From a virus (lineage: Duplodnaviria > Heunggongvirae > Uroviricota > Caudoviricetes), in IMG/VR virus record IMGVR_UViG_2660237951_000006: a stretch of 7,744 nucleotides of DNA; one strand, 5' to 3'. The notes below the pieces were generated by a model that made no database searches, was not told where the DNA came from, and saw only the letters and a program-made list of their open reading frames with translations. Positions 5,796 to 7,394 of the stretch are shown one piece after another (position 1 is the stretch's first letter; each line of letters starts with the position of its first letter). The position numbers and the translations under genes were made by a program.

Positions 5796-5845
5796 ATGCG
5801 GCACTCCTGGTTAAATTTCATTTTTCGCGGGTATAAAAAAACGAT

Positions 5846-5894
5846 GGGGCGGGCAGTCCGGAAGACGCCAGGTCACAGGGATTTGACCCGCCCC
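5846..5894. repeat. GC-rich inverted repeat GGGGCGGG (5846-5853) / CCCGCCCC (5887-5894) separated by 33 nt, in the HNH-terminase intergenic region
   Basis: Read directly from the sequence. On the minus-strand transcript the structure is followed by AUCGUUUUUUUAUA. It lies where the cos site is expected in HK97-like genomes. Confidence 0.4.
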
Positions 5895-5920
5895 TCCCCT
5901 CAGACAGTTGAGAATTATTA

Positions 5921-6271
5921 TCACTTTAGCCGTTCACGGGCCGTCTTCGCCTTATGGCACGGCCAGCACAGGCTCTGCAGATTGCTGTCGGCATCTGTGC
6001 CGCCATGCGCTTTAGGAATGATGTGGTCAACGGTTTTCGCCTCACGTACCACACCACCACGCAGACATAACTGACACAGTCCTTTGTCACGCTTGAGCAC
6101 ACGTTCACGGATAACATCCCATTTCGAACCATAACCGCGCTGGTGTCTGGACTGGCCCGGCTTGTATTGCTTCCAGCCTTCACTTTTGTGGCTTTCGCAA
6201 TAGCCTGACGGGTCAGTTGTGGTATGGCGGCAGCCGCGAACACTGCAGGCTTTTGGGGTTCGTGGCGGCAT
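5921..6271 (-). CDS. HNH endonuclease (packaging-associated, HK97 gp74-like)
   Basis: 116-aa ORF with a zinc-binding Cys cluster (CSVRGC...C) and HNH core DHIIPKAHGGTDADSNLQSLCWPCHKAKT. It sits directly upstream of the terminase small subunit, as in HK97-like phages. Confidence 0.88.
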   Translation of the reverse strand: MPPRTPKACSVRGCRHTTTDPSGYCESHKSEGWKQYKPGQSRHQRGYGSKWDVIRERVLKRDKGLCQLCLRGGVVREAKTVDHIIPKAHGGTDADSNLQSLCWPCHKAKTARERLK

Positions 6272-6570
6272 ATGTACTAATCTCCGATTTATCCAAATTT
6301 CACTGCCATAATGCCGACATTCTCTGCCATTATTGGCTCCGTTTATCCGTTAAAAGGGATATCAGTTAAGTTATCCCGTGTAGGGTATAAGCCATTGTCG
6401 AGACCACTCATTGAATGGCCTCTGCAATAACCGATGTCTTTCCATCAGTCCGCCACCACAAAGAATCTTTTTTGCCATAAGGCAGGAGGTTCATCTTTCA
6501 GTGGCTGCCAGTGTTATTTCCCCACTTACTGGCTTGGGTTGCTTCGTGGTACTGCCGTAACTGGTGGTGC

Positions 6571-6590
6571 ACAGATTTAGTTAAATCTGT
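6571..6590. repeat. 20-bp near-perfect palindrome ACAGATTTA-GT-TAAATCTGT (9-bp arms, 2-bp spacer)
   Basis: Read directly: left arm 6571-6579, right arm 6582-6590, exact reverse complements. It lies inside the ~410-bp ORF-free stretch. Confidence 0.5.
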
Positions 6591-6681
6591 TCTCGCCTGA
6601 ACTATCTTTTACATACCCGGATTGTGGGGTGTAAATCACGGTTTCATTATCAAGCCCACCCGTAGATGTGCTTTGGAATGG

Positions 6682-6882
6682 CTACTGGCGGTCATTATGC
6701 TCGTAACGAGATACCGTCTTCCCGTTCTGGTTCATCACGTAGGCGACCTCGCCAGGTTTCAGGAATACATTTTTGTCCATTCCCGATACCGCGATGCTCT
6801 GCTGCCCCGGATTGAACCCTACACTCAACCCGCAATGAATCTCTTCACCGCCACCTGGCGACATTACTTTTACTGTTAACAT
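6682..6882 (-). CDS. Hypothetical small protein (66 aa) between the lysis cassette and the HNH gene; possible moron
   Basis: ATG at 6882 with GGAG 7 nt upstream and a TAG stop at 6682-6684. Same strand as the surrounding operon. No family recognised. An 85-aa plus-strand ORF overlaps it in antisense and was judged less likely. Confidence 0.45.
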   Translation of the reverse strand: MLTVKVMSPGGGEEIHCGLSVGFNPGQQSIAVSGMDKNVFLKPGEVAYVMNQNGKTVSRYEHNDRQ

Positions 6883-6906
6883 GCTTCTTCTCCTGCTTCT
6901 TCTGGG

Positions 6907-6934
6907 AATAAAAAAGCCCGACCGAAGTCAGGCT
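6907..6934 (-). terminator. Rho-independent terminator at the end of the lysis cassette
   Basis: On the minus-strand RNA: 8-bp stem AGCCUGAC/GUCGGGCU (one G-U wobble) with a UUCG tetraloop, then UUUUUUAUU. It starts 19 nt after the Rz stop. The plus-strand version has a C-A mismatch and no trailing U-run, so it is strand-specific. Confidence 0.65.
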
Positions 6935-6953
6935 CTGTTATTTGGGTGACGAA

Positions 6954-7394
6954 TCACTTAAGACACTGCTCTTTGATGTATTCCTGCAAATATCCAACCT
7001 GTTTCGTCACTGTGACGATTCGCTCTCTGAGGGTGAAATAATCCCGTTCAGCGGAGTCAGTAAGTCGGGGGCCGGTAACATCGCCCAGGCCGCCGGTGCT
7101 GGTCGTTCCGTTCGCGGGACAGTTTGCGTTGAGCTGCAGCCGCTTACGGCCAGCAGAAACATCAGCACGGAGACTTTCGATAGTAGCGTTAGCATCAGCA
7201 AGCTCCTTTGTGTATCTGGCGTCGAGTTCTGCTACATCACGTTGACGCTTCTGCATGTCAGCGATTGTGGATGCGGCTTTATCGCGCTGTTCTTTGTAGG
7301 CGATGGCGTTATCACGGTAATGATTAACAGCCCATGACAGGCAGACGATGATGCAGATAACCAGAGCGGAGATAATCGCGGTTACTCTGCTCAT
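6954..7394 (-). CDS. Rz: Rz inner-membrane spanin (i-spanin), lambda Rz-like
   Basis: 146-aa ORF with an N-terminal transmembrane segment ([23 protein letters not shown]) and a coiled-coil periplasmic domain. The N-terminus and the [10 protein letters not shown] motif match my recollection of lambda Rz. The ATG overlaps the endolysin stop (ATGA). Confidence 0.9.
7007..7201 (-). CDS. Rz1: Rz1 outer-membrane lipoprotein spanin (o-spanin), embedded in the +1 frame of Rz
   Basis: ORF lies entirely inside Rz in another frame. Signal peptide with lipobox LAVSGC, a proline-rich mature part, and the C-terminal motif [11 protein letters not shown] shared with lambda Rz1. The true start may be a downstream Met. 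Confidence 0.85.

Follow-up and report, generated by a model that had tools for sequence, protein, structure and literature searches.

A conserved late-operon spacer of P22-like and HK97-like phages carries two related RNA stem-loops bracketing an accessory-gene slot

The viral sequence analysed here, a stretch of 7,744 nucleotides from a tailed phage (Caudoviricetes; IMG/VR record IMGVR_UViG_2660237951_000006; hereafter the window), has its late genes tightly packed except for a gap of about 410 bp (6272–6681) between an open reading frame (ORF) of 66 codons and an HNH endonuclease gene. Within this gap lie two related copies of one ~40-nt stem-loop, Ha (6645–6680, minus strand) and H7 (6391–6431, minus strand), in which pairing is kept by compensatory and wobble changes on the strand of the late mRNA. 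As a feature of lambdoid late operons the gap is ordinary: in the window, the moron site published for phage P22, an accessory-gene slot, stands empty; the slot itself (the pid/Gp49 site) was already known, and what is new is the pair of related late-strand RNA hairpins that brackets it. We favour, with a probability of about 0.55, the interpretation that the gap is an unoccupied, conserved non-coding late-operon spacer of P22-like and HK97-like phages whose hairpins act on the late mRNA; judged from their geometry, their position after stop codons and their covariation, this is most likely the role of the two elements. The initial annotation of the window had drawn attention to the gap and to a palindrome within it. 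It had missed both the known P22-like moron slot and the fact that the covarying elements are the two hairpins, not the palindrome.

Two related hairpins with covariation on the late strand

H7, identified by covariation, folding energy and a covariance model, comprises a 7-bp outer helix (GUUAUUG/CAAUGGC), a 2 × 2 internal loop and a 10-bp inner helix (GAGGCCAUUC/GAGUGGUCUC) closed by the loop AAU, with a folding energy of −23.6 kcal/mol and a covariance-model match of 67.5 bits in the window. Over 33 distinct variants, 97.3% of the alignment cells are paired, with four pairs changed on both sides and at least ten kinds of one-sided change tolerated at 97% pairing; the covariation score was reached in 0 of 500 shuffles, and controls slid along the alignment gave 32–55% pairing. 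Between empty-type and cassette-type copies, three pairs change from G-C to A-U and a fourth from G-U to G-C. The 5′ strand of the outer helix is drawn from three different cassette-specific sequences, with pairing retained in each. When read as minus-sense (late-strand) RNA, 97% of cells pair, against 82% for plus-sense RNA and 80% if only Watson–Crick pairs are admitted, 17.5% of cells being G-U. This strand asymmetry and the share of G-U pairs point to RNA of the late transcript, rather than to a DNA cruciform or an antisense RNA.

Ha begins one base past the stop codon of the upstream gene (6684–6682), and its inner stem closes on a UACG loop. It was recognised by aligning Stx2 phage 1717 and mEp460, has the same architecture as H7 and is ~78% identical to cassette-type H7; its covariance-model match (6640–6685) scores 48.3 bits. 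Ha abuts the stop codons of at least five unrelated upstream genes, namely those for Rha and hkbL, the 66-aa ORF of the window and two others. In a joint alignment of Ha and H7, seven pairs are changed on both sides and 93.9% of cells are paired. When the two hairpins were combined into one covariance model, its matches were Ha and H7 and nothing else, all on the late strand; this held for the window, for the whole HK620 genome, for every locus searched and for a set of 64 sources (770 kb). Stx2 phage 1717 and mEp460 carry one hybrid hairpin and lack the intervening segment of 210 nt, which is thus dispensable in nature.

The copy of Ha in the window is weaker than the consensus (−11.3 versus −20.6 kcal/mol), owing to a private C>A change at 6669 and a common C variant at 6676. 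Neither the C>A change at 6669 nor the loss of a T near 6631 occurs in any of 35 compared relatives; the Ha variant of the window is shared by three fetched loci, including L033 and L061, which carry the 66-aa ORF. The changes in the window copy suggest relaxed constraint in its lineage.

A third stem-loop, H8 (GGGAUA...UAUCCC; 6352–6377, minus strand), is an inverted repeat with a weak predicted fold (−8.3 kcal/mol) followed by UUUU; it is replaced by the pid moron in P22 and deleted in ST64T. None of these structures has the form of an intrinsic terminator, since Ha, H7 and the palindrome lack a U-run and H8 has just UUUU after a weak 6-bp stem. A dispersed repeat of the repetitive extragenic palindromic (REP) or enterobacterial repetitive intergenic consensus (ERIC) kind is ruled out by the presence of two hairpin copies in HK620 and of BLAST matches at one place per phage record. 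The literature searched contained no description of the Ha/H7 hairpins; it yielded the papers on pid and the viable P22 deletions discussed below.

Conservation of the spacer as non-coding DNA

The initial description of the gap holds in most respects. The ORF lists contain no ORF of 60 aa or more within 6272–6681, the minus-strand ORFs reach at most 35 aa (those on the plus strand 48–50 aa), and all remaining minus-strand gene junctions overlap or measure ≤116 bp. The AT-richness that had been noted is real and amounts to a modest drop in GC content, 0.445–0.48 against ~0.52–0.60 in the flanking genes.

A nucleotide search of relatives, proposed at the outset as a check, found the stretch kept as non-coding DNA. 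The block 6321–6681 is 93–99% identical in 200 phage records, including HK620, Sf6, JEP4, HK106 and many Salmonella phages, and no gene is annotated across it in RefSeq HK620, in JEP4 or in NCBI-annotated Escherichia coli chromosomes. The HK620 record holds dozens of curated regulatory features, none of them in its equivalent 353-bp gap. Relatives also lack a long ORF here, including 35 compared copies that have the extra T. The core of the block (6388–6556, 169 nt) occurs in 1,121 of 5,426 complete E. coli genomes (21%), and also in P22 and HK97; no annotated feature lies beneath the core match in 12 of 12 rows among the matches listed.

In nearly all of 1127 E. coli records the core is 95–99% identical, whereas a longer query that includes the HNH gene is mostly 90–95% identical. 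Among sequences selected by the palindrome, nucleotide diversity (π) is 0.02 for the block and 0.043, 0.057 and 0.086 for the three codon positions of DUF2560 next to it. The lower diversity of the block and the higher identity of the core suggest constraint, and we do not rely on them.

The distribution is narrow. A blastn search for distant relatives gave no match below 80% identity, and a scan of 185,579 species genomes for a 26-mer from the core found it in the E. coli representative only, apart from contigs of metagenome-assembled genomes. A wider taxonomic sample for covariation is therefore unavailable. The metagenome-assembled genomes with the exact 26-mer are labelled Cellvibrionaceae, Candidatus Nanosynbacter, Bacillota and Collinsella (loci L091, L092, L093, L095, L096 and L097); these contigs are most likely mis-binned contigs of enterobacterial phages.

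The nearly invariant segment B1

Between the two hairpins lies B1 (6432–6556, minus strand), a nearly invariant non-coding segment shared by P22, HK97, epsilon34, Sf101, ST64T, HK620 and JEP4. Cassettes in relatives are inserted between its 3′ end (...GGAAAGACAUC, ~6433) and H7. The whole block has a folding z-score of −4.4 on either strand, and in a scan of the late strand with 150-nt windows the values over 6295–6544 (−3.3 to −4.6) are the lowest in the 7.7-kb window, apart from one spot in the 66-aa ORF.

The proposal that the gap encodes a small RNA found no support in these searches. Rfam 15 gave no match at E ≤ 1 inside the gap of the window or of the HK620, P22, Sf6 and Stx2-1717 loci, ARAGORN found no tRNA or tmRNA, and a promoter and terminator scan called nothing on the late strand within the gap. 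No site matching the integration host factor consensus (WATCARNNNNTTR) is present in the window. The RNA-seq table of a BTP1 lysogen lists no non-coding RNA (ncRNA), searched by name, between rha (388358–388963) and pid (389225–389539), which is the equivalent interval; the ncRNAs found there by name (STnc6000, STnc6010, STnc6020 and one at 403942–404727) all lie elsewhere. On the opposite strand, B1 contains a weak terminator-like hairpin (6468–6489, plus strand), at a place where the record of phage L annotates a leftward terminator (L240 757–801).

An empty accessory-gene slot with sharp mosaic edges

The mosaic structure of the region was analysed in 84, later ~240, fetched loci. Homology to the window has sharp edges at 6321, ~6372–6386, 6409|6433, 6558 and 6681. 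The part from 6321 to 6558 is shared by epsilon34 and HK97, that from 6372 to 6558 by P22 and BTP1; in P22 the latter corresponds to 40180–40368 (92% identity), directly after the rha stop codon; next come ~600 bp with pid, then orf80 (DUF2560). Relatives show the same succession of Rz, accessory genes, spacer and head genes.

Both the location, between the lysis and small terminase genes with homology to the rha–orf80 interval of P22, and the presence of differing inserts, or none, at the same point in related phages are those of a moron slot. Inserts of 130–730 bp occur between the end of B1 (...GGAAAGACATC) and H7 in ~40% of the loci; their products are a Phage_gp49_66 protein (Sf6 gene 66), a DUF551 protein, a 57-aa phrog_5425 protein or a 23-aa ORF. 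All insert genes have the orientation of the late operon and a Shine–Dalgarno sequence of their own, with 0 promoter calls. In the window no moron unit is present: neither a gene nor a promoter nor a U-tract terminator was called on the late strand of the gap.

The pid moron of P22 lies at this locus, and related phages carry no insert or another one (Cenens et al. 2013, PMC3573128); its promoter and terminator have been mapped (Wolput et al. 2022, PMC8835761). Neither of these papers describes flanking hairpins. The P22 pid locus resembles the window in lying in the late region between rha or the lysis genes and orf80 (DUF2560) or the terminase genes, but differs in that pid has a promoter of its own and runs counter to the late operon. 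The Gp49/66, DUF551 and phrog_5425 cassettes, unlike pid, are co-oriented with the late operon and lack a promoter call. The junction occupied by pid (~6372–6386) is also a second one, separate from the main cassette junction at 6409|6433.

Several observations concern the cassettes themselves. In phage Huey (L241 382–762 and 997–1497), automatic annotation labels the Gp49/66 cassette and a second gene, upstream of the spacer, 'anti-CRISPR protein'; for the Gp49/66 cassette protein (PF13876; also in Sf6, L003 547–927), PHROGs and Pfam give just 'unknown function'. Stacked cassettes, a phrog_5425 gene with a Gp49/66 gene, are found in L043 and L054 (~250–290), joined at ACAAAA|ACATC. At this junction the 5′ flank of H7 and the 3′ end of B1 share a microhomology, a hint at the way in which tandem inserts build up.

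Boundary or linker sequences of lambdoid mosaicism were reportedly described for HK620 by Clark and colleagues in 2001. Such sequences are short conserved non-coding stretches at module transitions, thought to provide homology for recombination, and in the spacer of the window the conserved flanks B1 and H7 bracket variable inserts as boundary sequences would. The Sf6 record annotates bsq features, yet neither a bsq nor any other feature covers the spacer in Sf6 or HK620, and the spacer elements are structured hairpins whose covariation is of the RNA type, a property that boundary sequences need not have. A Chi site was also considered; at best there is a 7/8 match (CCACCAGT versus CCACCAGC) at 6559–6566 (minus strand), at the boundary between the palindrome segment and B1, and it is kept in most copies.

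A recombination joint at the head-module end

Homology to P22-like phages ends at 6321 in almost all of the 84 loci because ACGGAGCCAAUAAUGGCAGAGA is the start of DUF2560, the gene that follows the spacer in these phages: it comprises the ribosome-binding site, the start codon and the first three codons. This relic (6321–6340, minus strand; Shine–Dalgarno GGAG at 6340–6337, ATG at 6330–6328, three codons) is identical to the start of DUF2560 (hkbM/orf80) in HK620, JEP4 and Sf6; the DUF2560 assignment was confirmed by Pfam. HK97 retains ~27 DUF2560 codons ahead of its HNH gene, and the window and other HNH-type prophages retain three, which are fused into an ORF of 13 codons ending 17 nt short of the HNH start. 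The adjoining segment 6272–6320 (minus strand), through which only HNH-type prophages continue (95–97% identity), supplies the HNH gene with its ribosome-binding site and contains the end of the remnant ORF.

At 6272–6330, recombination has joined the accessory region to the HNH/terminase head module. The suggestion that the gap is a recombination scar applies to this part, where the head module is joined within the first DUF2560 codons, and does not extend to the remainder of the gap. Two boundaries are adjusted accordingly: on its right side, the gene-free stretch is directly bounded by the 66-aa ORF stop codon, and its left 50–60 bp hold a start signal and the 13-codon remnant ORF (6330–6289).

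Possible action of the hairpins on late mRNA

In the direction of late transcription, the layout is the stop codon of a variable upstream gene, Ha, the optional palindrome segment, B1, the cassette insertion point, H7, H8 and the DUF2560 start. With no Rfam match, no late-strand promoter or terminator and no BTP1 ncRNA, the spacer is most simply taken as part of the Q-antiterminated late mRNA, and it would be transcribed only within that message. Hairpins between cistrons of an mRNA are known as REP-type stabilisers of 3′ ends and as T7-type RNase III processing signals. Ha and H7 resemble these in being stable stem-loops without a U-tract, placed right after stop codons in a long polycistronic transcript. 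H7 has an RNase III-like geometry, with two helices, a small internal loop and ~17 bp in all, although its helix is shorter than the ~20–22 bp of classical RNase III sites, and the comparison is one of geometry (−21 to −24 kcal/mol). Unlike REP elements, Ha and H7 are not dispersed, there being two copies per phage genome. Both would probably act as signals for the protection or processing of 3′ ends, marking where accessory cassettes end, and the conserved flanks, B1 on one side and H7 through H8 on the other, would supply the homology by which co-infecting phages swap cassettes. The palindrome would be an optional minor hairpin, not an operator.

Several points weigh against a function of the hairpins in late mRNA. 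P22 derivatives with resistance cassettes in place of orf25-pid-orf80 are viable, growing and lysogenising normally (PMC11016777; bioRxiv 10.1101/2023.08.15.553423); since they would have lost the 3′ arm of H7 and all that follows it, any function is non-essential in the laboratory. The both-sided changes in H7 separate two or three sequence types and so represent few independent events, and Ha by itself shows no significant covariation. The helices of B1 (H4–H6) are invariant, which is partly imposed by the 26-nt search pattern, and, having no support from covariation, tell neither for nor against a structure; the near-invariance of B1 is left unexplained by the hairpin model. In addition, segment-wise mosaic genealogies could yield the low diversity of the block without selection.

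Alternative explanations

Two alternatives had been raised when the gap was first described, that it is a decayed gene and that its palindrome is an operator. A pseudogene spanning the whole gap is scarcely credible. One T near 6631, present in each of the 35 relatives compared, is missing from the window, and short ORFs of 22–35 aa persist, some of them annotated (P22 orf25 and ST64T orf118, for example), but relatives that have the extra T likewise lack a long ORF, and tblastn with the conceptual translation retrieved the same DNA-level block only, with no diverged homologue. Over six frames, the synonymous fraction among 59 distinct variants of a 172-nt core is 0.17–0.38, against 0.24–0.27 expected. 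The 28-aa ORF (6494–6408) has lost its ATG in 4 of 100 distinct sequences and has a stop at codon 6 in 7 of 100, and ST64T orf118 is this ORF fused to DUF2560 through a deletion; P22 orf25 shares just nine codons with the 22-aa ORF of the window, up to the pid junction. In the plus-strand 48-aa ORF, variation is mostly non-synonymous and frameshifting, with no coding signal. No intact colinear gene occupies 6331–6681 in relatives, and decay is seen solely at 6321–6330, together with the Shine–Dalgarno sequence at 6337–6340, as part of DUF2560. The palindrome (6571–6590, either strand) is as first described, with perfect 9-bp arms and a 2-nt spacer, and lies in an optional segment of ~60–70 nt. 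Such a repeat (perfect 9-bp arms, spacer 0–6) arose in 13 of 2,000 dinucleotide-preserving shuffles of the gap, so that perfect arms are improbable there by chance, and the analytic expectation over the whole 7.7-kb window is 0.2. Its 9+2+9 geometry is that of phage repressor operators, at least 79 viral contigs contain the identical sequence, and genes for Rha, an annotated anti-repressor or regulator, and for KilA-N-domain proteins often lie just upstream, all of which would fit a site for a dimeric helix-turn-helix protein regulating late or accessory genes. Judged from the sequence, this role is nevertheless very unlikely. The palindrome is absent from P22, HK97, ST64T, ES18 and Stx2 phages, which retain other parts of the spacer (the core, in the case of HK97, ST64T and P22), and its symmetry is not conserved: of 125 copies gathered by a neighbouring anchor, not by the palindrome itself, ~25 have an asymmetric A>G, four have a different A>G, and copies of the HK620 type have in addition an A>C without compensation, HK620 itself showing two uncompensated changes. 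Both kinds of A>G break the symmetry of the DNA but retain G-U pairs in late-strand RNA. Moreover, the palindrome stands downstream of at least five unrelated genes, has no consistent regulator gene beside it and overlaps no promoter-like site, unlike repressor operators. As RNA it forms a weak, A/U-rich 8-bp hairpin (−7.0 kcal/mol), with folding z-scores around it of just −1.3 to −2.1.

The remaining alternatives concern the hairpins and the segment between them. The spacer could be a neutral leftover, a patchwork of recombination scars containing relics of old cassette ends (former terminators, for example) that spread recently and looks conserved because it is young. This we consider doubtful, though well worth weighing. 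The many mosaic breakpoints, the fact that 93–99% identity is usual for shared lambdoid modules, the narrow host range of the core 26-mer, the natural variants without the B segment (Stx2-1717), H8 (ST64T) or the palindrome (HK97), the viability of the P22 deletions and the private damaging changes in Ha of the window would all be compatible with neutrality. What it does not account for is that H7 keeps 97% pairing, with strand asymmetry, despite one-sided changes and four both-sided ones, that its outer helix is rebuilt from three different cassette-specific 5′ strands, and that the core is more uniform across the 1127 E. coli records than the longer query that includes the HNH gene. Rather less probable is an ncRNA formed by the 210-nt segment from Ha to H7, cut from the late transcript at both hairpins or transcribed from its own weak promoter, in which the invariant B1 would work through base pairing or protein binding. 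B1 is nearly invariant without a coding signal in six frames, has folding z-scores of −4.4 to −4.6 and exposes a CCUCC motif in a predicted loop, and the two related hairpins that bracket the segment resemble RNase III processing sites in shape, with two helices and a small internal loop each. Set against this are the missing Rfam family, the lack of a sigma-70-like promoter call on the late strand and of a U-tract terminator, the lack of covariation support for the B1 helices and the position of all annotated BTP1 ncRNAs outside the rha–pid interval; cassettes split B1 from H7 in many functional phages, so that adjacency is unneeded, and Stx2-1717 and mEp460 do without the whole segment. A bolder version, in which the hairpins define a recombinase-independent 'cassette slot' in lambdoid late operons and the 210-nt segment is released by cleavage at Ha and H7, seems similarly improbable; if it were true, about one-fifth of complete E. 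coli genomes would carry an unannotated, late-expressed phage RNA, with the hairpins as its processing signals. Finally, the hairpins might be recombination sites at the DNA level, comparable to integron attC sites, which are likewise imperfect hairpins at the 3′ ends of promoterless, co-oriented cassettes. The promoterless cassettes of the slot, all in one orientation, each end in a hairpin, the two hairpins bracket the segment as a direct repeat, and the single hybrid hairpin of Stx2-1717 is what recombination between the copies predicts. However, inserts of two genes have no hairpin between the stacked cassettes, which are joined at the short microhomology ACAAAA|ACATC; the covariance model finds just these two hairpins in the HK620 genome and in the 64 sources; no integrase or other dedicated recombinase gene is annotated beside the slot; and the 17.5% of H7 cells that are G-U, without which pairing falls to 80% in DNA, point to RNA. 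Recombination sites of this kind are accordingly a highly unlikely explanation.

Implications

On the preferred reading as an unoccupied late-operon spacer, the apparent anomaly in a tightly packed operon is explained as the empty state of a known hot spot for accessory genes. This hot spot now has precise coordinates for its insertion point and for its 5′ (B1) and 3′ (H7) flanks, which could guide searches for accessory cargo in prophages, potential anti-defence genes among it, and could offer safe places for insertions when phages of the P22, HK97 and HK620 types are engineered. The Ha/H7 hairpin, a structured element that is widespread and lacks annotation, is carried by 21% of complete E. 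coli genomes. Since deletions overlapping the region proved viable in the laboratory, the practical stakes are modest.

Neighbouring genes and further observations

All genes of the window are on the minus strand. In the order of transcription, an endolysin fragment, Rz (7394–6954), a terminator (6936–6913) and the 66-aa ORF (phrog_3909; 6682–6882, minus strand), one of several alternative genes that end at Ha, precede the gap. It is followed by the HNH endonuclease gene (5921–6271, minus strand; Pfam HNH and NCBI annotation in relatives), the first head-module gene downstream of the spacer, and then by genes for a P27-family small terminase, a large terminase, a ymfR-like ORF, portal, protease and capsid. 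The cos site of HK97-type phages sits between the HNH and small terminase genes; in the window, a 116-bp gap (5805–5920) separates the HNH gene from that of the P27-family small terminase.

The only Rfam match at E ≤ 1, a weak one to isrJ (6912–6982, minus strand; 27.2 bits against a gathering score of 37, E = 0.086), takes in the 3′ end of Rz together with the intrinsic terminator (6936–6913), whose hairpin probably drives it. The lowest folding z-score of the window (−5.0) falls within the 66-aa ORF (6745–6894, minus strand), a region that includes a perfect 9-bp inverted repeat (6749–6757 and 6853–6861) whose arms are ~95 nt apart.

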